Below are positions 8,679 through 51,024 of a DNA stretch of 64,000 bases, in pieces. Origin of the DNA: an uncultured Gammaproteobacteria bacterium (GTDB lineage: Bacteria > Patescibacteriota > Microgenomatia > UBA10105 > UBA927); assembly GCA_964349125.1 (NCBI GenBank), contig CAYGFH010000001.1, positions 644,801 through 708,800 of the forward strand, read 5' to 3'. Position 1 is the stretch's first letter. The number at the start of each line of letters is the position of its first letter. A program made the position numbers and the translations under genes. The notes under the pieces are model-generated. The model saw nothing but the letters and a program-made list of their open reading frames with translations. It was not told where the DNA came from and did not search any database.

Positions 8679-8763
8679 GGAGAGGTCGCATAGTGGTCTA
8701 GTGCAGCGGTTTACTAAACCGCCGAATCGCAAGATTCCGCGAGTTCAAATCTCGCCCTCTCCG
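8679..8763 (+). tRNA. tRNA-Ser-like (type II), anticodon apparently ACT (A34)
   Basis: GGAGAGG-TC-GCAT-AGTGGTCTAGTGC-A-GCGGT-TTACTAA-ACCGC-variable arm-GCGAG-TTCAAAT-CTCGC-CCTCTCC-G(CA). Stems are perfect. The loop is identical to the neighbouring tRNA-Ser(GCT) except A instead of G at position 34. Confidence 0.6.
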
Positions 8764-16518: not shown

Positions 16519-17001
16519 ATGCGAATATTTGGCTTTATTACGGGCTTTTTCATATTACTGGTAGTTTCAGGAGTTATGGTTCCTCGTGTGTTCGCTCAGG
16601 GATCAACGACGACGATGCAAAACAATGCATGTGATCCAATTACCGATCCAGATGCAAAGAGCAAGTGCGAAGCATGTATGGGTGGAGAGACAAATACTGG
16701 TACCTTCACTGCATTAGGGTGCATTTCAACACATCCTGGAGACCTGCTCGGAAAAATTATTGGGCTCGCAATCGGCATGGCTGGCGGAATTGCGTTTTTG
16801 TTGATACTGTTTGGAGGATTTCAAATAATGACAAGCGCTGGCAACCCAGAGCAACTTAATGCTGGTCGCGAATTAGTCAGCTCTGCAATTACGGGACTGT
16901 TACTTATTATTTTCTCTATTTTTATATTACAATTTATCGGGGTGAATCTAATAGGAATTCCGGGGTTTGGAGGAACACCTGGTGCTTCAGGCGGAAGATA
17001 A
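16519..17001 (+). CDS. VirB2/TrbC-like T4SS pilin paralog 1
   Basis: 160 aa. Signal peptide (…PRVFAQ), then two hydrophobic helices separated by a short polar loop (TSAGNPEQLNAGRELVSSAITG), the PF04956-like architecture. It belongs to an 8-member paralog family in this window. Confidence 0.5.
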   Translation: MRIFGFITGFFILLVVSGVMVPRVFAQGSTTTMQNNACDPITDPDAKSKCEACMGGETNTGTFTALGCISTHPGDLLGKIIGLAIGMAGGIAFLLILFGGFQIMTSAGNPEQLNAGRELVSSAITGLLLIIFSIFILQFIGVNLIGIPGFGGTPGASGGR

Positions 17002-17002
17002 T

Positions 17003-17362
17003 ATGAAATACTTAACACAAAATCTATCTATACCGTGGGGAACGGGCCCAGGAGATACAGCTACCATTAAAGGTCCTCTCGGTGATGGAGTAATAGGCGG
17101 TGGAGCAGCAACCGTTGGAGGTTTACTCTCAAGCGCTATGAAATTGGTATTTCTCTTCGGAGGAGTAGGGCTCCTCCTCATGCTGTTGGCGGGTGGCTTT
17201 ACATTTCTCACGAGCGCAGGAGATATGAAAAAACTTGAAAAAGGCAAACAGCAAATCACAAACGCAATACTGGGATTTATCATCATTTATGGAGCGTATT
17301 GGGCGGTTCAGATCTTAGGATTCATATTCGGATTCGAAGCAATCGATACTATTTTCTCCTAA
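17003..17362 (+). CDS. VirB2/TrbC-like T4SS pilin paralog 2
   Basis: Start taken at Met of MKYLTQNL, 1 nt after the pilin-1 stop. It has the same TM-loop-TM pattern (LTSAGDMKKLEKGKQQITNAILGFIIIY). Confidence 0.5.
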   Translation: MKYLTQNLSIPWGTGPGDTATIKGPLGDGVIGGGAATVGGLLSSAMKLVFLFGGVGLLLMLLAGGFTFLTSAGDMKKLEKGKQQITNAILGFIIIYGAYWAVQILGFIFGFEAIDTIFS

Positions 17363-17366
17363 CAAT

Positions 17367-18077
17367 TTACGAACCAAATCGACGGTGTCTCATCTCATAC
17401 TGTTCAACCAGATTATCAAGCTTTTCTGGTGAAAAGTCGGGCATGTGCCAGTCAACAAAAAACAGTTCACTGTATTGGCTTTGCCAGAGTAAAAATCCGC
17501 TCAACCGTTTTTCACCACCGGTTCGAATCACCATTTCAGGGTCAGGTATCCCTGCTGTATCCAAAAATTGTGTAAAGTACTCTTCAGATATCTTTGTATT
17601 TGGTGTTTGAGAGGCATGACTGTCAAGAAGCCTGTTACATGCCCTGATAATTTCATCGCGTCCTCCATAATTAAGGGCAAACACAACAGTTATTCTTGTA
17701 TTATCTTTCGTTTTTTCGCTGTAGTGAGAAAGAAGCTCTCTGATGTCACTGTCAAATGATGCTGTATCCCCAATGACGCGGATCCGAATGCCCTTTTTAT
17801 GCATACGGTCACCAAATGTTTTAAATCCATACCGAAGCAGATTCATAATGCCCTTTACCTCCGCACTATCCCGTTTCCAATTTTCTGTGGACCACGCCCA
17901 TAATGTGAGAAACTGTATACCCATATCGGCCGCGTGTTCTATGAGAGATTCAAGGACACCATCTACGACTTTTCTGTGTCCCTCAAGAATCGGAAGATTA
18001 TGTTCCCTCGCCCACCGCCTATTCCCATCCATAATGATTGCGATATGCTCCGGAATTGTTGGTTTTGTCGTCTTCAT
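17367..18077 (-). CDS. uppS: undecaprenyl-diphosphate synthase (cis-isoprenyl transferase)
   Basis: 236 aa. HIAIIMDGNRRWA, a second DGNRR-like block and RTGGEKRLSGFLLWQ match the UPPS family. Confidence 0.85.
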   Translation of the reverse strand: MKTTKPTIPEHIAIIMDGNRRWAREHNLPILEGHRKVVDGVLESLIEHAADMGIQFLTLWAWSTENWKRDSAEVKGIMNLLRYGFKTFGDRMHKKGIRIRVIGDTASFDSDIRELLSHYSEKTKDNTRITVVFALNYGGRDEIIRACNRLLDSHASQTPNTKISEEYFTQFLDTAGIPDPEMVIRTGGEKRLSGFLLWQSQYSELFFVDWHMPDFSPEKLDNLVEQYEMRHRRFGS

Positions 18078-18080
18078 AGA

Positions 18081-19061
18081 TTAAAACAAATGTGATGTGA
18101 CAGTTCTGGTACCCACTGCAGGCGCATTGACTATGACTCTGCACACTCCGCCAATTGCACCAACCAGAGATACGACCTGCTGTTCATGTTTAGCCTCACA
18201 TAAGACGTGTACATTGGGACCTGCATCAATCGTATAGTACACGGGGAGTCCATCTTCCCGCCACTTGGAAATTGAATTCATCAACTCAATTGTCACATCA
18301 TTCCAATATTGTAGTGGTGGGGTTTGCGTTTGCATGACGGCGTGCATGGAAAGACACTCATCTTCCACGAGCTGACCAAACCGCACAAAATCACGCGCGT
18401 GAAATGCATCCAGCATACAACTGAGTGTTCTATCTATCCCCTGTTGCCTTTTTTCCCACAAGGGACTTGAAGAGACCTTTTGGTGGCCTTCGGATGTAGA
18501 GACCTTCTTCATCGAGGTATCGACAATACACAGAATGTCCCTCAGATCCCAAAATGTCGAGGGAGCGATGCTGTGTGCATACGACGTGTCATCAGATGTC
18601 CCCTTGTCCCACACGACAAATCCGTCGGGAATGCTCCTGCATGCTGACCCTGATCCTCTCCTTGCTAGTATCGTCAATTCCCGCTCTGAAAAAGTCAGTC
18701 CCAGTGCGCCGGAAGCTGCCACTGTTAATGCCGCGAATCCCGACGCGGATGACGCTACTCCCGTGCCTTTAGGAAAAGAATTTTTTGTCACGATACGGGC
18801 ACTTTTTTTACTACCTGCCAGAGTACGCAACACGGTAATATGGTCAACGATCCGCTGAGACTCGTGTGTGGAAACACTCTCACCATCAAACGAGACGAGG
18901 TCCTTGGTATATTCATTCGAAAACTCTACGGTTGTCACGGTGGTTGCCTTTGTGAGATTCATCGAGAACGAAGAGTTCGCAGGCAGTCTGCTTGCAGCAT
19001 CACGCTTCCCCCAATATTTGAGAAATGCGATATTTGCCGGCGCTATAGCTGTGGTTTTCAT
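18081..19061 (-). CDS. mvaD: diphosphomevalonate decarboxylase (GHMP family)
   Basis: 326 aa. APANIAFLKYWGKRD N-terminal signature and GHMP ATP-binding motif GTGVASSASGFAAL. Confidence 0.8.
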   Translation of the reverse strand: MKTTAIAPANIAFLKYWGKRDAASRLPANSSFSMNLTKATTVTTVEFSNEYTKDLVSFDGESVSTHESQRIVDHITVLRTLAGSKKSARIVTKNSFPKGTGVASSASGFAALTVAASGALGLTFSERELTILARRGSGSACRSIPDGFVVWDKGTSDDTSYAHSIAPSTFWDLRDILCIVDTSMKKVSTSEGHQKVSSSPLWEKRQQGIDRTLSCMLDAFHARDFVRFGQLVEDECLSMHAVMQTQTPPLQYWNDVTIELMNSISKWREDGLPVYYTIDAGPNVHVLCEAKHEQQVVSLVGAIGGVCRVIVNAPAVGTRTVTSHLF

Positions 19062-20542
19062 GATAGTACTCCGATCAGAGACAATGCCTGTAAGGCGCCT
19101 TGGGTAAACTTCATACCCCCGGATACAATTCTCGTCCGAAGTGTCTCCGGGTCTATACAGAGAATCTCTGCAACTTCGTCAGGATGCGCTTTAAATGGAC
19201 CTGAATGCACACCCGTGTATACCACGGCTCTTTCTGATTCCATTGTATTTTTTATGATCATCTTTCCGGCAAATTCCAGGTGTGTATCTACACCGATTTC
19301 CTCCCGAAGTTCCCTGTGCGCAGCTTCCTCATCCGTTTGTCCCTGCATCACATGACCGGCTGCCGATATACCCCATAAGCCCGCGTCCATATCTTTTGTC
19401 ATCGTCCTTTTTTGTAGTACAAGCTCGCCGTTATCCGTAGTAAGTAGTACTCCGACAGTCCTATGCATAAGTGTGGAATTCGCGTGGCACTCTGCCCTGG
19501 TTCTGTACTCAATAATCTGATCTGCCTCGTCCACGACAATGAGCATTTCAGATTGATTATCTGTTGTTTCTCGCCTCACACCTGGCGCGTCTAAATCAAC
19601 TGAAATAACTTCTCCGCCCGCCTGATTGATCGCCAAAGCCACCGCGTCTTTACACGCCGCATCAACCACAGCGAGCATACAGTCTCCCCCACCTGCTCCC
19701 GATAATTTTGCGCCGAGAGCACCTGCTTCTTTGGCGGCATGAAGCAGTGATTCAAGCTTCTCTGAACTAACCCCTAAATCCCTGAGATATTCCTGATTAA
19801 AATTCATGAGAGTTCCGATTCTATCCCACTCAGATGATGCCAATCGATGCGCCGCATCTGTAACAAGATCTGTTATCGCCGTAAATATCCGCTCAACTTT
19901 TTCAGGTTCGGCTGTGCGTTTTGCCGCAACAGCACGAACGATCGATACGGTATCTGCTTTCACTCCACTGTACCCCACGAGTATCGGTAAAGATGTTACA
20001 GGCAACTGTTCCACTACGTCTGCGCCTGACTGGTAGAGTATAGTTCCACCCCACACAGCACAGGCAACATCAAATCCGGATCCTACCTGCTGAACATCCA
20101 ATACTGCCGCATATGCTATATCGAACAATTCTTTGGACTTTATATTATGTCCATACAGCTCAGACAGTGCATACACCATGCACACAACACTTGCTGATGA
20201 CGATCCGAATCCAAACGTAGAGGGAAAATCAGATTGAGTCGACACAGCGACTCCCCCATCTATGGGGTGTCGCGCGAGATATCGTCGTAGCGCGGCGACA
20301 ATAAACGCAGCTTCTTTTGGAATATCATCTTTCCCGAGATCTGACAGCGAGAGTGAGTATTCAGGGAGACCGACATCGGGAGCCCGAAGCGTCAATACAT
20401 GATCAGGTACCGATGATAGCGTAAGGTGCATTCGCTTTCCGACGGCAGTTACAATACACGGATGCCCGTACACGACGGCGTGATCCCCAAACAGCAGCAA
20501 CTTTCCCGGCGCACTGACTGTGATTGTCGAGTTATTTTTCAT
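19058..20542 (-). CDS. GHMP kinase (phosphomevalonate/mevalonate kinase-like) fused to a C-terminal Nudix/IDI-like domain
   Basis: 494 aa. N-terminal ~330 aa: APGKLLLFGDHAVVYG and GFGSSSASVV GHMP motifs. C-terminal ~150 aa: HRTVGVLLTT...GLWGISAAGHV...DEEAAHRELREEIGV, a Nudix-fold pattern as in type-1 IPP isomerase, but with Ala in place of the IDI Cys. Confidence 0.65.
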   Translation of the reverse strand: MKNNSTITVSAPGKLLLFGDHAVVYGHPCIVTAVGKRMHLTLSSVPDHVLTLRAPDVGLPEYSLSLSDLGKDDIPKEAAFIVAALRRYLARHPIDGGVAVSTQSDFPSTFGFGSSSASVVCMVYALSELYGHNIKSKELFDIAYAAVLDVQQVGSGFDVACAVWGGTILYQSGADVVEQLPVTSLPILVGYSGVKADTVSIVRAVAAKRTAEPEKVERIFTAITDLVTDAAHRLASSEWDRIGTLMNFNQEYLRDLGVSSEKLESLLHAAKEAGALGAKLSGAGGGDCMLAVVDAACKDAVALAINQAGGEVISVDLDAPGVRRETTDNQSEMLIVVDEADQIIEYRTRAECHANSTLMHRTVGVLLTTDNGELVLQKRTMTKDMDAGLWGISAAGHVMQGQTDEEAAHRELREEIGVDTHLEFAGKMIIKNTMESERAVVYTGVHSGPFKAHPDEVAEILCIDPETLRTRIVSGGMKFTQGALQALSLIGVLS

Positions 20543-21479
20543 CTAACCGTACTCCTTCTTCTCCGAGTGAAATATGGGTAAGCTCATACGCATAGTGTGA
20601 GAGCACAGAGGCGACACGGGCGCGGTCCGGGTGATAGCCCAGCATAAATCCGACCCCGTTTTCCACCCCACCCCCACCCAATATCTTGACCGCACCGCCA
20701 ATGTGCTCTATTTCCCGTATACACGGCAGTACTGAGGCACTCACCACTCCCATGTGTTCCAATGTTTTCTCGCCAATTTTCATGGCATCTATGAGTGTCT
20801 GTTCATCCCCTTCTTTTATTGCCACCGTGATGCGTCGAACCTGCGCTTCGTTAATGGAGAATTGTGTATGCAGGGCATCAGCATCAGTGGATACAGATGA
20901 TGCGACGCGCGTCACCATATCGCCTGTGGATTCCTTTGGTCTACCGGTATTGATGAGGAAAAAATGAGAGAGAGTCGGATGAAGCTTAAAGGGCAATTGC
21001 CATATGCTTTTGAGGAACTCAAGCTCCCTCCTATACCAAATAAATCCGCCCATGGTCACTGCTGTGTTATCACCACCTGACGGATTTTTATGTTGTTTTT
21101 TTTCAATTTCATACGCCAGTTCATTTATGCGAATAGGATTCCAGATCTTTTTATAGTGGTACAGCATAGCACCCGCAATACCAACTGCCATAGCAGCAGA
21201 TGATCCTAAGTGAAATCCTGAAGGGATATCGGACGAAATAGTTATACGGGCGGGCGTGGGATGAGTTATAGCAAGTGTGTCCAAAAGATATCGCACAGCG
21301 TGCTGTGCGTGTTTTACTCCGACCGAAGAATCCACATGGATATCGGTTTCGTCGGGTGCGCCATGTTCAATAGTTACTCGAAGTCGTCTGTTTACTGCGC
21401 AAAGCAACGCAGGGTATCCGTACACGACGGCGTGTTCGCCCATTAAATGTATTTTTCCCGGAACTGACACTGTCGTCAT
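20532..21479 (-). CDS. mvk: mevalonate kinase (GHMP family)
   Basis: 315 aa. VPGKIHLMGEHAVVYG and PSGFHLGSSAAMAVG motifs. Confidence 0.7.
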   Translation of the reverse strand: MTTVSVPGKIHLMGEHAVVYGYPALLCAVNRRLRVTIEHGAPDETDIHVDSSVGVKHAQHAVRYLLDTLAITHPTPARITISSDIPSGFHLGSSAAMAVGIAGAMLYHYKKIWNPIRINELAYEIEKKQHKNPSGGDNTAVTMGGFIWYRRELEFLKSIWQLPFKLHPTLSHFFLINTGRPKESTGDMVTRVASSVSTDADALHTQFSINEAQVRRITVAIKEGDEQTLIDAMKIGEKTLEHMGVVSASVLPCIREIEHIGGAVKILGGGGVENGVGFMLGYHPDRARVASVLSHYAYELTHISLGEEGVRLDEK

Positions 21480-21784
21480 AGTGAGAGAGGTTTCACCTTT
21501 ATGCCGTATGGTATTACATCATCTGTGCCTGATTGCGCCGTTTTTCTCACAATGGTTATTACTTTTTTCCCAACTTCCAAGGCATCCAAATCACAATCAA
21601 CTATCTGTACACATAACGATTCGCCTGATTCGAGCCGAACAATTGCTACCGCATATGGGGCCTGATACCCAAAGTTTGCGGGCGGCACTCTGATAATTGT
21701 CCACGTCACAAGCTCCCCTATTTTCCCTATCATTCGCGCTACATATTTCTGATTTCTCCACACTTTTACCGGCGATATCATCAT
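21476..21784 (-). CDS. DUF35 OB-fold protein (thiolase/HMG-CoA synthase scaffold, archaeal type)
   Basis: 102 aa. OB-fold region (RVPPANFGYQAPYAVAIVRLESG...) of the DUF35 family that partners archaeal thiolase and HMGCS. It lies directly between those genes and mvk, and its stop overlaps the mvk start. Confidence 0.6.
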   Translation of the reverse strand: MMISPVKVWRNQKYVARMIGKIGELVTWTIIRVPPANFGYQAPYAVAIVRLESGESLCVQIVDCDLDALEVGKKVITIVRKTAQSGTDDVIPYGIKVKPLSL

Positions 21785-21820
21785 AGTTTAGCGTTTAGGG
21801 TACAGGGTTAAGTGTATGTG

Positions 21821-22999
21821 TTACTTTACCCTTTCCGCTACCCCCTTTTTAAGTATATGAACAACAGCGGTGGCACCACTGCCTCCTACATTGTGCGTCA
21901 GACCGTACGTTGCATCTGACACCTGGCGCTTGACCGCTTTTCCACGTAATTGATCGGCGACCTCGACTAACTGTTTCACCCCTGTAGCCCCAACGGGATG
22001 CCCGCATCCTTTGAGCCCACCGGACGTATTTACGACGAGCCGGGTGGAGGAGCCGAGCGTGGTTTCTCCGCGCTCAATTGCACCGGCGGCGCTTCCTTTT
22101 TCATAAAACCCCAAATCTTCCATTGCGAGAATTTCCGCTATGGTAAAACAGTCATGAACTTCAGCGACATCGATATCACCCGGTCCAATTCCAGCAAGAG
22201 CATATGCCTTTGCACTGGCTGTTCGCGTGGCCTTGAGCTCTAACAGGCTCGACCGCTGGGCAAGTGACAACGTATCCGTGGCAACAACAGACGACACGAT
22301 CTCGACAGCGTGTGATCCCAAATGTTGTCGCAATTTTTTGTTTGACGTTATGACAATCGCCGATGCTCCATCTGAAATCGGAGAACAATCAAGAAGTGTT
22401 AAGGGGTCGGCGATACAGGAGCTTTTAAGTACCTGTTCAACTGTTATTGCGCTGTGGAATTGCGCGTTTGGATTTATAAGAGCATGTGCATGATTTTTAA
22501 CGGCGACTGACGCGATTTGCTCCCTTGTCGTACCAAATTCACGCATGTGGGCACCCGCAAGCATCGCGTATAACCCCGGGAACGTGGCTCCGGAGAGCCG
22601 TTCAGGTTCACTACCTGCACCCATGAGCGCGGTTGCAACGTCCTCTGGTTTATGATCGGTCATCTTTTCGACACCCAAAACCACAACTGTTTCATACTGA
22701 CCGGAGAGCACACCATTAACCGCGTTATGTGCGGCAAGACCTCCGGAAGCACAGGCTCCCTCTACTTTAAATGCCGGAACAGGTAGTCCTAATTCTTCAG
22801 CAAAAAATGCACCCAAATGTTCTTGACCGCCAAGCATCCCTGAAAGCATGTTGCCTACAAACAATGCCTCAACAGCAGAGGGCTCGATACCCGCATCTCT
22901 GAGGGCATCACCGACCGCCTGTTTGGCAAGGACCCGGGGGGATACCCCCCAGAGTTCTCCAAATTTCGTTGTTGCGGCTCCAATTATGTATATACTCAT
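21821..22999 (-). CDS. acetyl-CoA C-acetyltransferase (archaeal-type/SCP-x-like thiolase)
   Basis: 392 aa. Thiolase fold with active-site Cys region (GACASGGLA) and a C-terminal GHPVGATG motif. Short, archaeal-type. Confidence 0.8.
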   Translation of the reverse strand: MSIYIIGAATTKFGELWGVSPRVLAKQAVGDALRDAGIEPSAVEALFVGNMLSGMLGGQEHLGAFFAEELGLPVPAFKVEGACASGGLAAHNAVNGVLSGQYETVVVLGVEKMTDHKPEDVATALMGAGSEPERLSGATFPGLYAMLAGAHMREFGTTREQIASVAVKNHAHALINPNAQFHSAITVEQVLKSSCIADPLTLLDCSPISDGASAIVITSNKKLRQHLGSHAVEIVSSVVATDTLSLAQRSSLLELKATRTASAKAYALAGIGPGDIDVAEVHDCFTIAEILAMEDLGFYEKGSAAGAIERGETTLGSSTRLVVNTSGGLKGCGHPVGATGVKQLVEVADQLRGKAVKRQVSDATYGLTHNVGGSGATAVVHILKKGVAERVK

Positions 23000-23027
23000 C
23001 GTTAATCGTTAATCGTTAATCGTTAAT
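23000..23027. repeat. 7-bp tandem repeat (CGTTAAT) x4 immediately 5' of the thiolase start codon
   Basis: CGTTAATCGTTAATCGTTAATCGTTAAT, directly adjacent to the start codon complement at 22997-22999. Confidence 0.8.
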
Positions 23028-23062
23028 CGCGATTTGCGGTTAACGGATAGCGGTTTACGGTA

Positions 23063-24112
23063 TTAAATTTTGTGTGTTTTTTTCAGATATCCGACATAAT
23101 CAATGTATGTTTTTTGGGATATTTGCTCGGACACCGTGGTCCTATACGCATTTGCACGGGATCTAAATGCGACTATTTCTTCTGTCACTTCCCATACAAA
23201 CGAATCACTCCCTGCTCCTGATCCATACGATGCCATAAATATTTTTTCGCCAGGTTTTGCTATATCAAGCACGGCCGCAAGCCCCAAGAGCGCTGATGCG
23301 GAGTAGGGATTACCGATGGCATCAACGGTGAGAGACGGCAGGAGCTGTTCTTTGGTAAACCCAAGACGACGGGCCACATCACGCGGGAATTTTCCATTCG
23401 GCATATGAAACACACAGTATGAAAAATCACTTGGCTTCATATCTGTCTTCTGCAACAGTTGGGTTGACGCTCCCATGACGTGGGCAAAGTATGCCGGTTC
23501 ACCGGTAAATCGACCTGAGTGGGATGGATACCGCAATCCGTCCCGTCTCCAAAAATCCGGTGTGTCCGACGAAAATGATGAATATGAAATGAGAGACGCG
23601 ATGCACTGTGTAGATCCGAGAATGTATGCTGCTCCTGCTGCCGCTGATGTATATTCAAGCGCATCATGCGGTTTGCTTTGCGCGGTATCTGCGCCAATAA
23701 CCATTCCATGCTCCACATGGCCTGATCCCACTATACCTGCGATTGCCTGCATGCCCGCTGTTGCGGCTTTACAGGCAAATTGCATATCAACTGCCAGGTA
23801 TGAATTACCTATGCTGAGTAACTCTCCCACGATAGTGGAGGTAGGATTCACTGCATACGGATGACTCTCGCTCCCGACAAAGAGCACATCGATATCTGTG
23901 GGATTGCCTGAATATCCATATAGACTTTGGCACCCTGCTTCAAGGGCTATGGTGACGGCATCTTCATCCACTCCCGGCACTGATTTTTCTTTAATACCAA
24001 GTGATCCCTGAATTTCCACACCGTTTTTATCCCATGCATGTGCAATATCAGACAGCTTCACCCGATAGGTCGGTATATACGTTCCATATGATACGATCCC
24101 TGTCTGTTTCAT
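23063..24112 (-). CDS. hydroxymethylglutaryl-CoA synthase (archaeal-type)
   Basis: 349 aa. Thiolase-like condensing enzyme with catalytic Cys context (DMQFACKAATAG) and His/Asn regions. Short form as in archaea. Operon context supports the call. Confidence 0.8.
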   Translation of the reverse strand: MKQTGIVSYGTYIPTYRVKLSDIAHAWDKNGVEIQGSLGIKEKSVPGVDEDAVTIALEAGCQSLYGYSGNPTDIDVLFVGSESHPYAVNPTSTIVGELLSIGNSYLAVDMQFACKAATAGMQAIAGIVGSGHVEHGMVIGADTAQSKPHDALEYTSAAAGAAYILGSTQCIASLISYSSFSSDTPDFWRRDGLRYPSHSGRFTGEPAYFAHVMGASTQLLQKTDMKPSDFSYCVFHMPNGKFPRDVARRLGFTKEQLLPSLTVDAIGNPYSASALLGLAAVLDIAKPGEKIFMASYGSGAGSDSFVWEVTEEIVAFRSRANAYRTTVSEQISQKTYIDYVGYLKKTHKI

Positions 24113-25275
24113 GACCTCGCTCCCCTTCCCAACTGAGCATGTGCCCGCGAGAGACTCCCCTCGGATAGTGAGGCCAACAGTGAGACCTCACCGGCGAGCA
24201 CGGCTCCACCGACTACTTCTGCAAATTCCTGTGAAGTCAGTGGTTTTGTACTACCTGCGACTCCTACTATAGCGAGTGCCTCTTTTTGCGTTGCAAGTGT
24301 GGTTCCGCCGCCGACTGTGCCAACAAGTAGGTCAGGAAGGTAGACACTCATGTAGAGCCCCCCGTCAACAATTTCGCAGGTGGTAATACCCAAACTTCCT
24401 TCAACCACATGGGCAATATCCTGTCCTGTTGCCAGAAATACTGCGGCGATAATATTTGCATACTGCGCATTAAATCCCATGGAACCTGCCATGGCACTAC
24501 CGATCATGCACTTTGATAACCAGACGTCATAGAGCTTGGGCGCTGTTGTTTTGAGAACGTCTGCAATAACTTCACCTGTCAGGAGTACTTCGGCTCGAGA
24601 CTCAAATCCGCGGCCGCGGACAAAATTGATCCATGCAGGTTTTTTATCTATATCGTAATTACCGGCAACACTCAGACACTGCACGCCGGTCTGGGAGTTG
24701 AGGTGAGACGCAATGGCATCAGAGGCAATCGTAACCATATTCATACCCATTGCATCCTGCGTATGAAACACCAATCGCACAAAGACCTGTTTTCCCACAG
24801 ATTTCACAGTTATATCAGACAGAGCGATATGAGAAGACGTGGTTTTGGCAACGCGATCCAGATCTGACTCATGTTCATATATATAAGACGCAAGCGTTTC
24901 CCCTTCACGCACTCCGGACACTCGGAACACGAGCCCTCTACTTGTTCCTATCCGAAACGCGGATGTGGTTGCTCCCCCGCTTTTTGTAATCGCCTTACAC
25001 CCCCTGTTTACTGACGCCACCAGCGCCCCTTCAGTGGTGGAGAGCGGCACATAATACGAACGTGGTGAATCGGACACATCCGCTGTCCCTCGAAGAGTGA
25101 GTGGACCCGCTACGCCCACGGGGATTTGTGTGAAACCGATCATATTTTCGCAGTTTTTTGTGCTGGCTATAGTGGTATCAAGCGTACTTGAGCCGATATG
25201 TGGAAGCGCAACAGATAGTGAGTCCTCAAGTGACTTTCTTCGCTCGGATACTGATGTGTGTGTGCGCATATTCAT
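24109..25275 (-). CDS. hmgA: HMG-CoA reductase, class I
   Basis: 388 aa. ENMIGFTQIPVGVAGPL, VPLSTTEGALVAS, DAMGMNMV and GTVGGGT motifs of class-I HMGR. Confidence 0.85.
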   Translation of the reverse strand: MNMRTHTSVSERRKSLEDSLSVALPHIGSSTLDTTIASTKNCENMIGFTQIPVGVAGPLTLRGTADVSDSPRSYYVPLSTTEGALVASVNRGCKAITKSGGATTSAFRIGTSRGLVFRVSGVREGETLASYIYEHESDLDRVAKTTSSHIALSDITVKSVGKQVFVRLVFHTQDAMGMNMVTIASDAIASHLNSQTGVQCLSVAGNYDIDKKPAWINFVRGRGFESRAEVLLTGEVIADVLKTTAPKLYDVWLSKCMIGSAMAGSMGFNAQYANIIAAVFLATGQDIAHVVEGSLGITTCEIVDGGLYMSVYLPDLLVGTVGGGTTLATQKEALAIVGVAGSTKPLTSQEFAEVVGGAVLAGEVSLLASLSEGSLSRAHAQLGRGARS

Positions 25276-25283: not shown

Positions 25284-25916
25284 TTATATAAAGGGTATAC
25301 GAAATACGCCTATACGGTACATCAGTACGCTATAGAGACCAAGGAGCGGGAGCACGATAGCGCTAAGGAGTGAAATTTTGGCCAAATCCAGACGAAGCCC
25401 AAACCGAAGAGCTAAATATGAGAGTGTTATTTTCCAAAATAACAACGTAATGGATATAAGTAAATATAATGCACTAAATAGAATGCCGGTTCCGTTTGTA
25501 GACCGCGGAGGCGGCAGGAGTATATAGAGAAATGATGTCATCCAAAACCAAACGACAGTGGGAAGAAGCGTGTATCCCCAACTCACAACAAATCCTTTAA
25601 GCTTTCCCGATCGACCAAATAACGCACTGACGCACCAAAACAGGCCAATCACAATAATAAATGTGGATACAAATCCCGCCATAAGCACGATCCACTGTTT
25701 GGTAAGCAAATATGGTCGAAACAGTGATGTTTTCACGATTGATGCCACGGAAAAATACACGGCCACGATAAGTGCCAGGATTCCGAGTTCTTCGTATCTG
25801 GCGTGGTCAACTATCGCACGGAACGTCTCATACGGCTTCGTCACGACCCCGAGGGTGCGTAACCCAAAAAACACAAGTGATTGTTGCAGAGATCTGATCA
25901 TAAAATAGAGCCACAC
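25284..25916 (-). CDS. hypothetical polytopic membrane protein (Yip1-like)
   Basis: 210 aa, 5-6 TM. No motif recognised. Confidence 0.4.
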   Translation of the reverse strand: MWLYFMIRSLQQSLVFFGLRTLGVVTKPYETFRAIVDHARYEELGILALIVAVYFSVASIVKTSLFRPYLLTKQWIVLMAGFVSTFIIVIGLFWCVSALFGRSGKLKGFVVSWGYTLLPTVVWFWMTSFLYILLPPPRSTNGTGILFSALYLLISITLLFWKITLSYLALRFGLRLDLAKISLLSAIVLPLLGLYSVLMYRIGVFRIPFI

Positions 25917-26023
25917 ACAGCCCTACTGTAGTAGTCGTAGACACAGGACAAAACCATGCGCGAAGAGAGGGAATACGAACGTCTCTATACCGCCAACGGG
26001 CATGGAGCGATGAGAAAACCAGC

Positions 26024-26260
26024 TTAAAATCCTTTCTGCAAGATACTCACGAGGAGGGTTATCGTCGACCCGAATAGCATATACAGTCCAATGACTAACA
26101 GTAACGAACACACAACGATTGCGGCAAGGGGCATGACCTTTAACCGCTTAACCAGTATTTTATAGAGCGGTGTGAACGGACCGACTGTCTGAACGGGCAA
26201 ATCGGTAACCTCTTCCCACCGTTTCACAAATTTTTTGAACACTGCATCGTTTGATTTCAT
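26024..26260 (-). CDS. small membrane protein, candidate anti-sigma factor
   Basis: 78 aa. Cytoplasmic N-terminus and a single C-terminal TM. Its start overlaps the stop of the ECF sigma gene (ATGA). Confidence 0.3.
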   Translation of the reverse strand: MKSNDAVFKKFVKRWEEVTDLPVQTVGPFTPLYKILVKRLKVMPLAAIVVCSLLLVIGLYMLFGSTITLLVSILQKGF

Positions 26261-26808
26261 ATGGATATAAAAAGCTCCACAAATGCTTTGCGCGCGCGGA
26301 ACAGTTGTGACTCTGCGCCTTTCATGGATAAGGCGAATTTACTTGCGATGTCAGATACTGACAGATTTTCTACGTATTTTGATACGAGAAGTGATTTGTA
26401 ATGAGGCAACAGTTTACCAAATACCGTCTGTATTTTTTCCTTAAGTAGCACGATGTCCAGCTCCTCTTCCGGATTTTTCTGTGACGATATGAGCGTTTCT
26501 AAATTTGGCATCTGAGAAAATACCATTTGCTTTAATTTTTTGCGTCTGTAAAAATCGATGATTTTATTGTGGCAAATCGCATAGAGGAATGTGGTGATAC
26601 TGGAGTTTCCGTGAAAGTCCCGCAATGCTTCCAAAAAGGCAAATAACGTATCCTGCAGTATTTCTTCGCAATCCGCCGGGTTATTTACTTTTGTCCGAAT
26701 ATACGAGGTGAGTTTCGGCGTGTATCGCCTGTAAAATACCGCCAGTGCCTTCCGATCTCGAGCGAGTATTTGACGAATCAGGAGTGTATCATTAGCGTGA
26801 TCAATCAT
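26257..26808 (-). CDS. RNA polymerase sigma-70 factor, ECF subfamily
   Basis: 183 aa. Region 2 (LQDTLFAFLEALRDF, FLYAICHNKIIDFYRR) and region 4 HTH (LSVSDIASKFALSMKGAESQLFRARKAF). Confidence 0.75.
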   Translation of the reverse strand: MIDHANDTLLIRQILARDRKALAVFYRRYTPKLTSYIRTKVNNPADCEEILQDTLFAFLEALRDFHGNSSITTFLYAICHNKIIDFYRRKKLKQMVFSQMPNLETLISSQKNPEEELDIVLLKEKIQTVFGKLLPHYKSLLVSKYVENLSVSDIASKFALSMKGAESQLFRARKAFVELFISI

Positions 26809-26862
26809 AAGAATGTGGGAAAACTATACCACACACTCCATGGTTCCCACAAATTTATACAA

Positions 26863-26893
26863 ATTGACAGGACCGCACAAACTGCCATACACT
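26863..26893 (+). promoter_or_regulatory. candidate promoter for pilin array (-35 TTGACA at 26863-26868, -10-like TACACT at 26888-26893)
   Basis: TTGACA, a 19-nt spacer, then TACACT. ATG at 26903 implies a very short or leaderless 5'UTR. Confidence 0.3.
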
Positions 26894-26902
26894 ATTAGAT
26901 AT

Positions 26903-27226
26903 ATGGAGCGAGTCTATGCAGCTGTAGAAATCGGAAGTGAGTTCCCTTCATTAACACGCATAACAAGTCTTGGAGGGCTCTTGTCCGTCATCGTGCCAAA
27001 CGCCTTCATGCTGGCAGGGGTCATAGCCTTCCTTTTGTTAGTATTCGCCGGATTTGGTATGATACAGGCTGCGGGATCAGGTGATACAAAGCAAATGGAG
27101 TCAGGTAAAAAAGCGATTACAGGAGCTGTCATCGGCCTTCTCGTCATAATTGGATCGTTCTGGATTATTCAAATACTAGAGACATTAACAGGCATGAAGG
27201 GTCAAATCCTTCCGCCCATGAGATAA
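26903..27226 (+). CDS. VirB2/TrbC-like T4SS pilin paralog 3
   Basis: Start taken at MERVYAAV. Two TM helices flanking the loop IQAAGSGDTKQMESGKKAITGAVIGLLVII. Confidence 0.5.
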   Translation: MERVYAAVEIGSEFPSLTRITSLGGLLSVIVPNAFMLAGVIAFLLLVFAGFGMIQAAGSGDTKQMESGKKAITGAVIGLLVIIGSFWIIQILETLTGMKGQILPPMR

Positions 27227-27233
27227 TACAACT

Positions 27234-27596
27234 ATGTGGAAAGTATACGCAGATGACATTGTGGGTTCCGTGACAAACCCGCTCCCGGCACAGTATAAAA
27301 ATATAATCGGCGGAGGCACAGGTGGGGGACTTATCCTGTTTATGAGTAACATCTTGAGACTGGTGTTCGTCGTTGCCGGAATATTTGCATTTTTTAATTT
27401 CATCGTTGCAGGATTTCAGTACATGAATGCTGGCGGTGATGCTAAGTCGGTTTCGGCAGCGTGGGACAGAATTTGGCAATCGCTGATGGGATTGGTTATT
27501 ATCATTGGCTCTTTTGCGATGGCCGCACTTATGGGACAGGTATTTTTTGGCAATCCGAATGCAATATTAAGCCCGACGATATACGGTCCAAACTAA
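27234..27596 (+). CDS. VirB2/TrbC-like T4SS pilin paralog 4
   Basis: 120 aa. Gly-rich N-terminus, then TM1, loop MNAGGDAKSVSAAWDRIWQSLMGLVIII and TM2. Confidence 0.5.
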   Translation: MWKVYADDIVGSVTNPLPAQYKNIIGGGTGGGLILFMSNILRLVFVVAGIFAFFNFIVAGFQYMNAGGDAKSVSAAWDRIWQSLMGLVIIIGSFAMAALMGQVFFGNPNAILSPTIYGPN

Positions 27597-27597
27597 T

Positions 27598-27975
27598 ATG
27601 ACAAAAGTTCTTGCAGCATCACAACCACTCGGCACAATCGGAGGTGGAAGTTCAGGCGAACTCGGACCTTTTGCAGGGAAAAGTCTTAATAATCCACTTG
27701 ACGCCATAACTGGATACGTTAGTTCCATCGTGGGGATGCTTACGATTTTTGCGAGCATTTGGTTTTTATTTATGTTATTGTTCGCAGGGTATGAGTGGAT
27801 TAGTGCGGGCGGTGATGCCAAAAAAATCGCTTCTGCACGTGATCGCATCACACATGCGTTTGTGGGACTTGTCATTGTCATCGGATCTTGGAGTTTACTC
27901 GCCGTCACAGGACAGTTTTTTGGCTATGATACTTTATTGGGTTCAGGCGCAAATGAATATTTTAAATTAAAATAA
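27598..27975 (+). CDS. VirB2/TrbC-like T4SS pilin paralog 5
   Basis: 125 aa. Loop ISAGGDAKKIASARDRITHAFVGLVIVIG. Starts 2 nt after the previous stop. Confidence 0.5.
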   Translation: MTKVLAASQPLGTIGGGSSGELGPFAGKSLNNPLDAITGYVSSIVGMLTIFASIWFLFMLLFAGYEWISAGGDAKKIASARDRITHAFVGLVIVIGSWSLLAVTGQFFGYDTLLGSGANEYFKLK

Positions 27976-27979
27976 CACC

Positions 27980-28336
27980 ATGAATTCAAAAATCCTTGCA
28001 GCACTGAGCAATCCGGTATTACCCAACACCATCGGTGGTGGGGCAGGAGCAAATTATCAGCAGGGTGGGCGTGCGCTCGGGTCACTTATTAGCGGTCTTG
28101 TCGGAGCGCTGTTTATCGCAGGATTTCTTTTGGCATTCTTCTTCCTCATTACGGGCGGCATTACGTGGATCAGTGCAGGCGGAGATAAAGCAAAACTGGA
28201 AGCTGCACGGGATAGAATCACAAACTCTATCATAGGTATTATCATTGTGGGAGCATCATTTGCATTGACGGCTCTTGTTGCTGGATTCTTCGGATTTGAA
28301 CTGAATACCCTCCCAATACCCACGGTCGGACGGTAA
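27980..28336 (+). CDS. VirB2/TrbC-like T4SS pilin paralog 6
   Basis: 118 aa. Loop ISAGGDKAKLEAARDRITNSIIGIIIVGA. Confidence 0.5.
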   Translation: MNSKILAALSNPVLPNTIGGGAGANYQQGGRALGSLISGLVGALFIAGFLLAFFFLITGGITWISAGGDKAKLEAARDRITNSIIGIIIVGASFALTALVAGFFGFELNTLPIPTVGR

Positions 28337-28353
28337 GTTTCTCAAAGAAGACA

Positions 28354-28400
28354 TTGACATTGCGCGTTATTTTGCGCAACAATGAAAAATAGGATATAAT
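28354..28400 (+). promoter_or_regulatory. internal promoter with near-palindromic operator-like element upstream of pilin paralog 7
   Basis: -35 TTGCGC (28372-28377), 17-nt spacer, -10 TATAAT (28395-28400), and an upstream TTGACA (28354-28359). ATTGCGCG-ttatttt-GCGCAACAAT is an imperfect inverted repeat overlapping the -35. AGGAGG sits 9 nt before the ATG at 28426. Confidence 0.45.
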
Positions 28401-28425
28401 CAATGTATATAAATAGGAGGAACGT

Positions 28426-28755
28426 ATGAAAGTATTTGCAGCAGATCCACAAATCACCATTGGCCAACCATCAAATATTAAAATTGGAGATATCGGCCAA
28501 CTCATTAGTGCTCTTGTGGGAACGCTCCTTATTATCGCAGCACTGCTCGCTTTCTTCTTTCTGATTCTCGGTGGTATTCAGTGGATAACTTCCGGTGGTG
28601 ATAAAGCAGGCATGGAAGCCGCCAGAAACAAAATTACTCATGCGATTGTCGGACTTATCATTGTTGGAGCCGCATGGGCGGTTATGCTCCTCATCCAGAA
28701 CTTTTTGGGAGTCACGATCATTGGCGGCGCGGTAAATTTCCCAAAGCCATATTAA
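28426..28755 (+). CDS. VirB2/TrbC-like T4SS pilin paralog 7
   Basis: 109 aa. Loop ITSGGDKAGMEAARNKITHAIVGLIIVGA. Strong SD. Confidence 0.5.
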   Translation: MKVFAADPQITIGQPSNIKIGDIGQLISALVGTLLIIAALLAFFFLILGGIQWITSGGDKAGMEAARNKITHAIVGLIIVGAAWAVMLLIQNFLGVTIIGGAVNFPKPY

Positions 28756-28875
28756 CAGTGATTCTGGAATCTTGAATAAAGAATCATGGGGTTAGGGCAA
28801 ACGTGTATTGTTCGGTTTTCCATAATTCGTTATTCCTGATTCATTATTAACGCCCTCTCGTGCTACAATATACGT

Positions 28876-29259
28876 ATGAATTTCAAGCGATTTTCTGCAA
28901 ATATCGCGGTTATTGCCACGTCACTGCACCTTGCTCCATACGTTGTTGCTGAAGAACTTAGCACCTACAAAGACACAGATGTCGCTACTCTTAGTTCTCT
29001 CGAGGGATTGTTTAGTAACGCCGTAAGAACCGTGGTCTCTCTCTCCGCGGTAGGACTGTTCCTTATGTTCATCGCGGGCGGGTTTTCATTTTTATTCTCA
29101 GGCGGAGACCAAAAGAAGCTAGAGCAGGCTCGTGGCACCCTTACGAATGCAATTATTGGGCTTGTCGTCATATCATGCGCTTATCTGATCCTTCGAATCA
29201 TTGGAACATTTACGGGCACCTTGGATACCATTACCACATTTAAGATTTTTCAGGAGTAA
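28876..29259 (+). CDS. VirB2/TrbC-like T4SS pilin paralog 8
   Basis: 127 aa. Signal peptide, then loop FSGGDQKKLEQARGTLTNAIIGLVVIS. The upstream TGCTACAAT is -10-like. Confidence 0.5.
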   Translation: MNFKRFSANIAVIATSLHLAPYVVAEELSTYKDTDVATLSSLEGLFSNAVRTVVSLSAVGLFLMFIAGGFSFLFSGGDQKKLEQARGTLTNAIIGLVVISCAYLILRIIGTFTGTLDTITTFKIFQE

Positions 29260-29261: not shown

Positions 29262-30785
29262 ATGATTGACGTTCTTACATATATACACAATAATAGGAAG
29301 AGCATGATTCGTCTACTTTCCTCAACTCTACTTTTTATACTTTTTTTTGCAACTCTCCCTTCGGCAAATGTCTATGCGCAAAATCCTGCACCTGCACCCG
29401 TGCAGACATCGTCGTGGAAACAGTCCACACCCTTTTCATTTGGCAGCGCACTTGAAGGGACAGCGATGAATGCCCAATCAGCATGGCACACAGGGACACA
29501 GTACGTCATGTATTCGCTGACCTGTCTTATCACTGGAGCAGATTGTTCATACAAATTAGAGGATTTGCCTGCGAATATGTGTGGAAGCGCGTTGGGACAT
29601 ATAGATAAATCCATCGCAGCAACATTTGTAAATAGGCCTGCAGACACTGGACTGTGGCTCGCTGATACAGGAAGAACATTAGGGTTCCTCCCAAGGGAGG
29701 CAGTAGCGCAGGGTATAGGATTTTCAGGAATGCAACCGTTATTGCCTATTTGGAAAGCATTTCGAAATATTTCGTATATGTTGATGGCCGTTGTCATGAT
29801 CGCACTGGGATTTATGATCATGTTTCGCAAAAAAATAGATCCAAAAACGGTTGTCACTGCACAAAACGCAATTCCTAGAGTGGTGATAGCACTGATACTT
29901 ATCACATTTTCGTACGCTATCGTCGGTGTGCTTATCGATTTTATGTACGTCATCATCTACTTCTTAATTGCGCTGTTTAAGTCAACAGGGCTACTGGATA
30001 ATCCATCGTACCCTGTGTGTTTGGCGTACAAGACGCCTGAATTGCTCTATGGTCAGGGCGGCATGATGGCAAACTTCATGAATATCCCGAAGGATCCCTA
30101 TAGATTAATATTCGGCGCTACAGATAATTTTCTTGCAAACTCAGGCACCCTTTCAGGTATTGGGCTGGTGTTGGCCCTACTGGGAACTGCGGCATCAGTG
30201 CCTCCTGTCGCGACCGGAATTGCCGCTGGTGCGTTTATTGGGCTTCCGATTTTGCATCTTATTATTTCTATAATCATTATCTTTTTGTTCCTGCGATTGG
30301 CATTCTTTTTTCTGGGAGCCTATATACAAATTGTCATTTCACTGTTATTGGCACCGTTGCAGCTATTGTTTGAAGCGGTTCCTGGGAGCACGGCATTTTC
30401 CTCATGGATTTCAAATCTGATAGCGAATCTGGCGGTATTCCCTGTTGGCGCTGCGATGTTTATGCTGTCAAACGTATTTACCCATTTTGCAAATGTTAAT
30501 TCTGGCACTATCTGGGCTCCTCCGTACGCTCCAATATCCGGTAACGCATCGCAACTGTCTGCCATTATTGCTTTAGGTGTGTTGTTTGCCATACCGCAGA
30601 CTGCCGGCGCCATAAAAGAGGCGCTAAAGGCAAAGCCGGTTATGGGTGGTGGCAGTGGCAGTGGCGGCGGATTGCAAAATGCAGCGACGATACTGTCAAT
30701 GGCGTACTATGCACAGTCATTCACTCCACAAGGATTGAAGGATAGGATTTTCGGTGGGGGTGGAGACAAAAAAGGTGGGCATTAA
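29262..30785 (+). CDS. TrbL/VirB6-like polytopic T4SS membrane protein
   Basis: 507 aa. Signal peptide, ~130-aa extracytoplasmic N-terminal domain, at least 6 TM helices and a Gly-rich C-terminal tail. Sits directly after the pilin array (3-nt gap). Confidence 0.45.
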   Translation: MIDVLTYIHNNRKSMIRLLSSTLLFILFFATLPSANVYAQNPAPAPVQTSSWKQSTPFSFGSALEGTAMNAQSAWHTGTQYVMYSLTCLITGADCSYKLEDLPANMCGSALGHIDKSIAATFVNRPADTGLWLADTGRTLGFLPREAVAQGIGFSGMQPLLPIWKAFRNISYMLMAVVMIALGFMIMFRKKIDPKTVVTAQNAIPRVVIALILITFSYAIVGVLIDFMYVIIYFLIALFKSTGLLDNPSYPVCLAYKTPELLYGQGGMMANFMNIPKDPYRLIFGATDNFLANSGTLSGIGLVLALLGTAASVPPVATGIAAGAFIGLPILHLIISIIIIFLFLRLAFFFLGAYIQIVISLLLAPLQLLFEAVPGSTAFSSWISNLIANLAVFPVGAAMFMLSNVFTHFANVNSGTIWAPPYAPISGNASQLSAIIALGVLFAIPQTAGAIKEALKAKPVMGGGSGSGGGLQNAATILSMAYYAQSFTPQGLKDRIFGGGGDKKGGH

Positions 30786-35041: not shown

Positions 35042-35596
35042 TTACTGATACAAGCTGTGGGCTTGTATGTACAGCGATATGTGCTGGGGCACCAGTTGAC
35101 TAATGGGCAATCCTCTTTTCACCCTCTCCCGAATTTTTGTGGAAGAGATATTGCTCCCCACAAGCAATTCATCGGAGATAACATGCATGTTTGGATACAA
35201 TGGCTCATTTGGATATCCATACCGTGGAAATACCAGAAAAGGTAGCTCTTGTAATAGCTGCTGCCACTCCTGCCATAAATGCAGTGTTGGCAGTTGATCA
35301 GAGCCGATGATAAATGAGTAGGTGTGTTCTTTGGGCAAAAAAGGAAGGATGTGAACGGTTTCTCCGTCCAGTTGATTATCTATTTCGATAGTAGAGACCT
35401 GAGTTCTTGGAAGTTCTATAAGTCGGGTCATAGCAAGTCTATCTTCTACAGAAGCAACGGGTTTGGGAGGGCTTTGATGGAAGTTTGGCAAAAACCATAC
35501 TTCATCAGTCTCGGTAAAATCCAGCACCTGCTGGGCAATCATCAAGTGCCCGATGTGAGGGGGGTTAAATGCGCCACCGAGAAGTGCTATCTTCAT
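35042..35596 (-). CDS. nadD: nicotinate-nucleotide adenylyltransferase
   Basis: 184 aa. ALLGGAFNPPHIGHL (the H.GH nucleotidyltransferase motif) and a C-terminal ISST.IR motif. Confidence 0.8.
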   Translation of the reverse strand: MKIALLGGAFNPPHIGHLMIAQQVLDFTETDEVWFLPNFHQSPPKPVASVEDRLAMTRLIELPRTQVSTIEIDNQLDGETVHILPFLPKEHTYSFIIGSDQLPTLHLWQEWQQLLQELPFLVFPRYGYPNEPLYPNMHVISDELLVGSNISSTKIRERVKRGLPISQLVPQHISLYIQAHSLYQ

Positions 35597-37785: not shown

Positions 37786-37953
37786 GGGTTCATATTATCA
37801 CAAACAACAGGTGCTTCATGCTTGAGCATGATTCGACCCCACGCCGAGATGATCATCATTGTCGGCGTGAAAACTCAAATAATGAGTTTTCACGGTCCTG
37901 ATGCGCTTTGTGCTATTGCTAAACCCATAATACATTCGTAGAATATTTATACC

Positions 37954-39324: not shown

Positions 39325-39325
39325 T

Positions 39326-39985: not shown

Positions 39986-39991
39986 AACAAT

Positions 39992-41926: not shown

Positions 41927-41929
41927 ACC

Positions 41930-45227: not shown

Positions 45228-45252
45228 GTGCGGAATTTATGTTATCCGCACA
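45228..45252. terminator. 7-bp stem hairpin between convergent genes (GTGCGGA-atttatgttat-TCCGCAC)
   Basis: Inverted repeat seen directly. It overlaps the dnaN stop codon. No clear U-tract. Confidence 0.25.
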
Positions 45253-46340: not shown

Positions 46341-46383
46341 ATGTGTTTAGAATTATTACTATAGTATTAGTAATAGAAAGCGG

Positions 46384-46530
46384 TGTGGAAAAGTGTATGT
46401 CTTTTTCATGTGTAAGTCAACGGATCGCTCTGATCGAACAAGTAGTGTGTTTGATCGGAGAAAACCCTGTGGATCCTAATGTGGATAACTGTGTGGATAA
46501 CCATCATTAAAATGTGAATAAGTGGATAAG
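46384..46530. other. oriC candidate: DnaA-box cluster between dnaN and dnaA
   Basis: TGTGGATAA-type boxes (= TTATCCACA on the minus strand) at 46468-76 (TGTGGATCC), 46480-88, 46492-500, 46513-21 (TGTGAATAA), 46522-30 (GTGGATAAG) and 46384-92 (TGTGGAAAA). All share one orientation. An AT-rich tract sits at 46351-46380. Confidence 0.6.
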
Positions 46531-46539
46531 CAAAACAAA

Positions 46540-50038: not shown

Positions 50039-50039
50039 T

Positions 50040-51023: not shown

Positions 51024-51024
51024 T

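Follow-up and report, generated by a model that had tools for sequence, protein, structure and literature searches.

A mevalonate gene cluster of the candidate phyla radiation (CPR), including its synteny with a gene for a cis-isoprenyl diphosphate synthase (cis-IPPS), was described by Hoshino and Gaucher in 2018 (PMC6107057) as a hybrid set, in which an archaeal-like upper half is combined with a lower half of classical type. The same host group harbours the operon considered here, located on the minus strand of a 64,000-nucleotide stretch (the window) of contig CAYGFH010000001.1 (GenBank assembly GCA_964349125.1), and the gene complements agree: archaeal-type acetoacetyl-CoA thiolase (AACT), 3-hydroxy-3-methylglutaryl-CoA (HMG-CoA) synthase (HMGS) and class I HMG-CoA reductase (HMGR-I), in place of thiolase II and HMGR-II, are followed by mevalonate kinase (MVK), a second kinase of the MVK family, a decarboxylase of the diphosphomevalonate decarboxylase (DPMD) type, a gene similar to type 1 isopentenyl diphosphate (IPP) isomerase (IDI-I) and cis-IPPS. 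The operon is an instance of the published CPR cluster and in itself nothing new. Its undescribed part, and the value of the locus, is a conserved Nudix domain without the catalytic Cys of IDI-I, fused to MVK and referred to below as the X domain. The published account mentions fusions solely in stating that fused unrelated sequence was trimmed; the MVK-Nudix fusion is not described there, nor is the Cys-less X separated from canonical IDI-I. We consider it probable that the locus represents a Microgenomates-type mevalonate operon in which X is not a canonical IPP isomerase.

The fusion protein (494 amino acids (aa); 19058-20542, minus strand; GHMP kinase and NUDIX domains) comprises an MVK domain, residues 1 to ~322 (19577-20542, minus strand; TIGR00549), and the X domain, residues 325-494 (19061-19570, minus strand; PF00293). 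Aligned to Salmonella IDI (3hyq), X reads 'wgisaaghv' against 'wtnsvcghp', which places Ala at the position of the catalytic Cys, as the initial annotation had recognised. This Cys67 is essential in characterised type 1 IDI. In the 120 members of the fusion family that we compared (IDI positions are numbered as in type 1 IDI), position 67 is occupied by Ala (89), Gly (18), Ser (10) or Thr (3) and never by Cys, and the positions of Tyr104 and Trp161 are variable. The metal site, in contrast, is kept: His25, His32, His69, Glu114 and Glu116 correspond to H353, H360, H397, E435 and E437 of the fusion protein, the first being present in 116 proteins and the other four in all 120, as are the diphosphate binders Arg51 and Lys55. 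Throughout the family, Glu stands in place of Arg83, resulting in a hydrolase-type box, RE-L-x-EE-x-G-V, and in a Glu at the general-base position of MutT (canonical REUxEE box). The complete Nudix box of X is G396-x5-Q402-x7-R410-E-L-R-E-E-I-G-V; its REUxEExGU part is near-invariant, and position 402, Gln in the window protein, is Glu in 34 family members. The Nudix consensus is GX5EX7REUXEEXGU, and IDIs typically have no canonical box, whereas hydrolases do (PMC5389931). All members of the fusion family share another Cys, Cys352, which adjoins the ligand equivalent to His25. As a separate observation on Cys placement, the IDI of one CPR locus (L018, 7106-7825) passes both IDI equivalog cut-offs with the motif NSCSSHP, its Cys standing one position before that of E. 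coli and human IDI; a Cys at this earlier position is found in 22 of the 120 X domains as well.

Profile scores draw the same line between X and IDI. X reaches 76.5 bits with NF002995 (cut-off 127), 51 bits with TIGR02150 (cut-off 105.8) and 67 bits with the YfcD model (cut-off 152). Canonical CPR IDIs (L060, L017, L021, L018 and protein P0136) score 144-158 and 122-133 bits and pass both IDI cut-offs; all X-type domains tested stay under both, at 75-97 and 48-77 bits, and also under that for YfcD. The AlphaFold2 (AF2) model of X (pLDDT 96) is most similar to E. coli YfcD (2fkb; TM-score 0.85/0.90, rmsd 1.5 Å), followed by human and E. coli IDI (TM-score 0.80-0.83), and YfcD is also the best sequence match (E 4.7e-13), with human and E. 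coli IDI and Deinococcus DR0079 next. With YfcD and DR0079, X shares a hydrolase-type Nudix box, canonical in YfcD and with Asn for the last Gly in DR0079, and the absence of a catalytic Cys. It differs from them in keeping the full IDI metal site, since neither protein has residues equivalent to His25 and His69, and His32 is missing from DR0079 too. With type 1 IDI (E. coli Idi, human IDI1), it has in common the Nudix fold, the five metal ligands, Arg51/Lys55 and the linkage to isoprenoid genes; what sets it apart are the missing Cys67, Tyr104 and Trp161, the Glu for Arg83 that restores the canonical hydrolase box, and the failure at both equivalog cut-offs. An assignment of the Nudix domain to the MutT or ADP-ribose pyrophosphatase families, which would have contradicted the initial annotation, was not obtained: the domain belongs to the IDI/YfcD/DR0079 subgroup, but it is not IDI itself. 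On these sequence grounds, X is a distinct, uncharacterised paralogue of IDI and represents a large family derived from the type 1 enzyme.

The distribution of X was assessed by an exhaustive search of representative proteins, which returned 1112 representatives at E < 1e-10 with architectures including MVK-X, free-standing X and tandem proteins; it was used in place of a word-indexed search with the 170-aa X domain alone, which gave one match from 59 candidates. The MVK-Nudix architecture is common to more than 120 protein clusters, and the fusion, initially called unusual, is not rare. Fourteen CPR loci were compared for their operon content. The MVK-X fusion occurs in three of them (L015, L019, L060), a free-standing X gene between those for MVK and decarboxylase in three (L024, L026, L033), a canonical IDI alone, in a different operon slot, in four (L017, L018, L021, L031), and neither X nor IDI in the remaining four (L016, L020, L027, L075), so an IDI gene is not an obligatory part of the operon. 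Matches to X in L016 and L078 turned out to be ordinary Nudix proteins with no IDI metal site and were discarded. The order MVK, free-standing X, decarboxylase recurs in a further locus, L099, whose synteny is that of the window with MVK and X unfused, so the fusion arose by simple joining of neighbouring genes; X was a free-standing gene between MVK and decarboxylase, as in these relatives, before it was joined to MVK.

X and IDI occupy different operon slots, and they can be found together. In L060, the operon with the fusion also encodes a canonical IDI that has the Cys. In the tandem proteins P0123, P0125, P0127 and P0136, the first domain is canonical (Cys67, Arg83, Tyr104; ~50% identical to ordinary bacterial IDI-1) and the second carries the X signature; their genes lie inside mevalonate operons (L005/P0123, L004/P0125, L007/P0127, L008/P0136). 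The family is not confined to CPR, since an X-type, Cys-less domain with Glu83, 40% identical to the X of the window, is encoded next to the genes for a decarboxylase and a pair of GHMP kinases in a single-cell genome of the DPANN archaeon Aenigmatarchaeota (L051, 4817-5329). A gene pair of X with isopentenyl phosphate kinase (IPK), which would bear on isomerase function, was not seen among three free-standing X proteins, two of which are from mevalonate clusters (L098, L099) and one from an unrelated context (L095-L097).

One of these loci is of mixed composition. In L098 (GCA_023473235.1, JAMCYX010000003.1, 1-8893; a metagenome-assembled genome (MAG) of Patescibacteria), the 2-C-methyl-D-erythritol 4-phosphate (MEP) pathway genes dxr-ispD-ispF-ispE-ispG are followed directly and on the same strand by the genes for the second MVK-family kinase (kinA), MVK, X and decarboxylase; uppS stands two short opposite-strand genes further on, and no upper mevalonate genes are in view. 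The locus is a hybrid of MEP and lower-mevalonate clusters.

The residues retained by X, the His3Glu2 metal site together with the diphosphate-binding residues, indicate that it very probably binds IPP-like or dimethylallyl diphosphate (DMAPP)-like diphosphates. The loss of Cys67, Tyr104 and Trp161, the acquired Glu at the general-base position and the presence of X alongside true IDI argue that X is neither a canonical isomerase nor redundant with IDI, and its retention beside MEP-pathway genes in L098 counts in the same direction. We propose, with slightly less than even confidence, that X is an unrecognised isoprenoid enzyme of CPR and some DPANN organisms, in which the metal and diphosphate site of IDI was kept and the chemistry was changed towards hydrolysis or Cys-independent isomerisation. 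As to the activity itself, a metal-dependent hydrolase of a diphosphate from the pathway (IPP, DMAPP or one akin to them) is a tentative first candidate; a Cys-independent isomerase is possible and ranks second; and some other role, for example regulation by ligand binding, appears rather unlikely. In the case of hydrolysis, IPP, DMAPP or a related diphosphate may be converted to the monophosphate, and the domain, through its link to mevalonate kinase, would serve as a valve on flux or toxicity.

Hydrolysis of isoprenoid diphosphates by Nudix proteins has parallels. Methanosarcina mazei MM_2582 is a Nudix hydrolase acting on such compounds. To our knowledge, hydrolases of this kind are MutT-like, not derived from IDI and not fused to kinases of the pathway. 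Plant NUDX1 and human NUDT15 and NUDT18 are likewise described as cleaving IPP, DMAPP or prenyl diphosphates to monophosphates (bioRxiv 10.1101/2023.11.29.569174; PMC8857926). The relation of X to these four proteins could be one of functional analogy, and the score of X with the NCBIfam model 'Nud_hyd_Meth' is 33 bits against a cut-off of 300.

Several points weigh against the reading of X as something other than a canonical IPP isomerase. All support for it comes from sequence comparison and structural models. An ordinary Nudix hydrolase would hardly be expected to keep the His3Glu2 site specific to IDI, with its Glu116 equivalent, invariant; this favours IDI-like chemistry, the more so as YfcD and DR0079 have no such His residues. 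DMAPP is required by the operon for the priming of chain elongation, and the 64-kb window contains no second IDI. Operons with X only and those with IDI only largely alternate, as would functional substitutes. Finally, a hydrolase that destroys a product of the pathway while fused to a kinase of the same pathway has no obvious rationale.

Some of these points are also arguments for a bifunctional mevalonate kinase/IPP isomerase, in which X would be the only IDI of the organism and would work without Cys67, the second acid/base being, for example, the invariant Cys352 or a metal-bound water. We regard this explanation as possible but doubtful. The strict conservation of the metal ligands, Arg51 and Lys55, the invariance of Cys352 among the fusion proteins and the placing of human and E. 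coli IDI second among the fold matches speak for it, as does the published finding that in CPR IDI-I is universal and IDI-II sparse (PMC6107057). It has to be reconciled with the complete absence of Cys67 and the loss of Tyr104 and Trp161, with the scores under both IDI cut-offs, and with the fact that L060 and the tandem proteins contain canonical IDI besides X. Moreover, the position of Cys352 is not kept outside the fusion family, being Ala, Val or Cys in tandem and free-standing X domains, and four of the 14 operons have neither X nor IDI.

In public annotation, the fusion proteins are called just 'mevalonate kinase', and free-standing X proteins 'Nudix', 'MutT', 'hypothetical' or 'IPP isomerase'. 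This has a bearing on arguments about the ancestral mevalonate pathway, in which IDI-I is counted as universal in CPR. If X is not an isomerase, this universality rests partly on a non-isomerase paralogue, many Microgenomates are left with no recognisable IDI or with an unknown source of DMAPP, and a new Nudix-type activity exists within the pathway. Be it a hydrolase or a Cys-independent isomerase, X would amount to a new step or a new mechanism in a textbook pathway.

The N-terminal domain of the fusion protein is, by its sequence, the mevalonate kinase of the operon. It scores 196.7 bits with the MVK equivalog TIGR00549 (cut-off 163.05) and 131.5 bits against the M. mazei MVK (4hac), its AF2 model (pLDDT 92.7) matches archaeal MVKs (6mde/8teb) with Foldseek TM-scores of 0.89-0.92, and it is orthologous (42-46% identity) to the unfused kinases of L004, L005 and L008. 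The other kinase, kinA (315 aa; 20532-21479, minus strand; PF00288), is a divergent member of the MVK family that remains below every cut-off, with 147.8 bits for TIGR00549 and 47 bits for the phosphomevalonate kinase (PMK) model of Gram-positive bacteria; its best matches in PDB are MVKs, at 55-66 bits. The initial annotation had taken the 315-aa protein for MVK and the fused one for a second kinase; given the TIGR00549 scores, these labels look swapped. KinA is a candidate phosphomevalonate kinase (PMVK), a role suggested by pathway logic and by the published cluster (PMC6107057). It would add the second phosphate, in which case the decarboxylase would act on the diphosphate and, as homology supports, deliver the C5 product.

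The decarboxylase (mevalonate (di)phosphate decarboxylase, 326 aa; 18081-19061, minus strand) passes TIGR01240 with 263 bits (cut-off 171) and stays far under the cut-off of the MvaD (phosphomevalonate decarboxylase) model (192 bits, cut-off 475). Its best solved relative is 6n0x (294 bits), the phosphomevalonate decarboxylase of Anaerolinea thermophila (PMC9254496), ahead of bacterial diphosphomevalonate decarboxylases (203-208 bits), and after CPR its nearest homologues are from Chloroflexi. These affinities raise the alternative of a haloarchaea/Chloroflexi-type route, in which mevalonate 5-phosphate is turned into isopentenyl phosphate by the decarboxylase and IPP is then made by an IPK encoded elsewhere or by one of the two GHMP kinases; X could in that case control the ratio of isopentenyl phosphate to IPP. 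Such a route is consistent with IPK homologues reported in many Microgenomates (PMC6107057) and with relatives in which a single kinase adjoins the decarboxylase, namely L008 (10001-12991), with an MVK-type kinase and no kinA, and L011 (5704-8180), with kinA but without an orthologue of MVK; which kinases the pathway has is accordingly variable. Nevertheless, we consider it improbable. Apart from the profile scores, tblastn with an IPK query gave no match in the window or in the 10-kb flanks of the 14 CPR operons, whereas in Chloroflexi loci, which possess one kinase, the same query detects an IPK adjacent to the decarboxylase (E 1e-16 to 1e-36). Both GHMP kinases are kept in 13 of the 14 CPR loci from GTDB, the exception being L026, in which only MVK, X and decarboxylase were recognised. 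Two kinases and a decarboxylase with no linked IPK favour the classical diphosphate route. The decarboxylase affinity to the phosphomevalonate enzyme and the single-kinase relatives mean that this route is not proven, and another point against it is that kinA did not group with Firmicutes PMVK in a neighbour-joining tree of GHMP kinases: in this tree, which is rough, with saturated distances and a midpoint root, three deep groups were resolved and kinA fell in a CPR clade of its own.

The upper half of the pathway has its best solved relatives in a single archaeon, Methanothermococcus thermolithotrophicus, for thiolase, HMGS, DUF35 protein and HMGR alike, in line with the archaeal character first ascribed to these four genes. 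The HMGR (388 aa; 24109-25275, minus strand; PF00368, E 9e-112) scores 401 bits with the class I model (TIGR00533, NADPH class I) against 43.6 bits with that of class II; its best structure is 6hr7 (336.6 bits), followed by class I reductases, including the human enzyme 1dq8, at 225-247 bits. The short, archaeal-type HMGS (349 aa; 23063-24112, minus strand) passes NF003274 (478 bits, cut-off 244) and TIGR00748 (416 bits, cut-off 353); it matches 6esq_I with 347 bits, and Firmicutes HMGS with just 66-69 bits, and has the catalytic residues E82, C114, H236 and N268 in place. The archaeal-type acetoacetyl-CoA thiolase (392 aa; 21821-22999, minus strand; NF004720, 478 bits, cut-off 420) is closest to 6esq_A (315.5 bits) and contains the motifs C83-x-S, H282-D-C-F and G-H333. 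For the DUF35 protein (102 aa; 21476-21784, minus strand; PF01796, E 2e-14) the best match is 6esq_E (E 2.9e-13), the alignment being limited to chain residues 49-128.

The three adjacent genes for thiolase, HMGS and DUF35 protein thus find their counterparts in the corresponding chains of the M. thermolithotrophicus thiolase/HMGCS/DUF35 complex (6esq/6et9), and both the HDxF motif of the thiolase and the E-C-H-N residues of HMGS, named for this complex (PMC12960953), are present in the window proteins. The complex, as predicted here from genes, would differ in its DUF35 component, which is short and aligns to the OB-fold half only; no CxxC pair occurs in it, the sole Cys residues being at 58 and 64, so the N-terminal rubredoxin/zinc-ribbon part is missing. 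The DUF35 proteins of CPR relatives are equally short (98-102 aa). This N-terminal part is present in both archaeal and streptococcal complexes. By analogy, thiolase, HMGS and the zinc-ribbon-less DUF35 protein would produce HMG-CoA, probably as an archaeal-like channelling complex, and the class I HMGR, on homology, would reduce it to mevalonate. The notion of a complete archaeal-type pathway accordingly applies to the upper half of the operon and not to the lower, with its two MVK-family kinases and decarboxylase and with no IPK detected.

The last gene of the operon, uppS, encodes a cis-prenyltransferase/undecaprenyl-diphosphate synthase (236 aa; 17367-18077, minus strand; PF01255, E 1e-71; TIGR00055, 240.9 bits, cut-off 109.55), and starts 3 nucleotides (nt) past the end of the decarboxylase gene. 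The transcription order, according to Pfam and NCBIfam, is HMGR, HMGS, thiolase, DUF35, kinA, MVK-Nudix fusion, decarboxylase and uppS. The eight minus-strand ORFs, their coordinates and domain assignments agree with those listed initially, while the overlap of stop and start codons holds for four of the seven junctions (-4, -4, -11 and -4 nt) and not for the other three, which are gaps of 63, 36 and 3 nt. The linkage of uppS is real and kept in relatives, a cis-prenyltransferase gene being recognised in 12 of the 14 CPR loci. As a whole, the operon would turn acetyl-CoA into IPP and feed the co-transcribed cis-prenyltransferase, which makes the undecaprenyl lipid carrier.

Upstream of HMGR, the same-strand run extends through a gene for a Yip1-domain membrane protein (25284-25916, minus strand; PF04893, assigned on the identical gene of L001), 8 nt away and possibly co-transcribed with the operon, a 78-aa ORF and an ECF-type sigma-70 factor (26257-26808, minus strand; PF04542 and PF08281). 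The Yip1 gene has the same place relative to HMGR in L011 and L099, and L008 and L011 likewise have a sigma factor ahead of HMGR. This recurrent set (25284-26808) hints at dedicated regulation of the operon. Scans for promoters and terminators gave counts no higher than the shuffled expectation.

Since the upper-pathway proteins match methanogen structures best, it is conceivable that the operon derives from an archaeal mevalonate cluster recently acquired by horizontal transfer. We judge this to be very improbable. The nearest GTDB loci, from Gottesman-, Woese-, Chisholm-, Roizman- and Pacebacteria, share the operon at 40-83% identity together with its flanks, the syntenic relatives having the same pilin, SpoIID and SmpB genes. 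At 0.48-0.49, the operon is slightly richer in GC than the rest of the window (0.37-0.47), but neither a sharp break nor a mobile-element signature is visible. In published phylogenies, the CPR enzymes form a clade of their own (PMC6107057).

A bacterial host, as initially assumed, is evident from the content of the window, which includes tmRNA, SmpB, dnaA/dnaN, a sigma-70 family factor and SpoIID. Arrays of T4SS_pilin genes are also present, and the homologues of the fusion protein carry the names Gottesmanbacteria, Microgenomates or Patescibacteria; the host is thus a Gottesmanbacteria-like CPR bacterium of the Microgenomates. The identical fusion protein is encoded on contigs of 809 kb and 840 kb. 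Four MAGs (L015, L021, L060 and L075) are labelled 'uncultured Gammaproteobacteria bacterium' and yet have the CPR-type operon, with up to 83% identity to the window; these labels are probably wrong.

The operon has arrays of small T4SS_pilin-like genes on either side (16519-17362; 26813-29000, plus strand). Two large ORFs, of 507 aa (29262-30785) and 1365 aa (30897-34994), had no Pfam match. Beyond the pilin arrays (35593-44242), VirB4/TraG-like ATPases, a PrgI-family protein and an M23 peptidase make up a type-IV-secretion-like or pilus cluster. The genes dnaN and dnaA adjoin each other at 45237-47943 (minus strand), indicating that the window probably spans the region of the replication origin. 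A surface-polysaccharide cluster at 48017-61947, ~30 kb from uppS, contains genes for a Wzy_C O-antigen ligase-like protein, a radical SAM protein, three GT4 and one GT2 glycosyltransferases, an epimerase, an asparagine synthase and a methyltransferase, and its products are likely users of the undecaprenyl carrier. The glycosyltransferases were initially described as being near the operon; they are not adjacent to it, being located at 51-60 kb, past the type-IV-secretion-like cluster and dnaA/dnaN.

At the other end of the window, a Ser-type tRNA with a long variable arm (8679-8763, plus strand; Rfam 54 bits) has the anticodon loop UUACUAA and, according to ARAGORN, the anticodon ACU. An unmodified A34 is unusual for a bacterial tRNA-Ser. 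A tRNA-Ser(GCU) is encoded on the opposite strand, 150 nt from the ACU tRNA.

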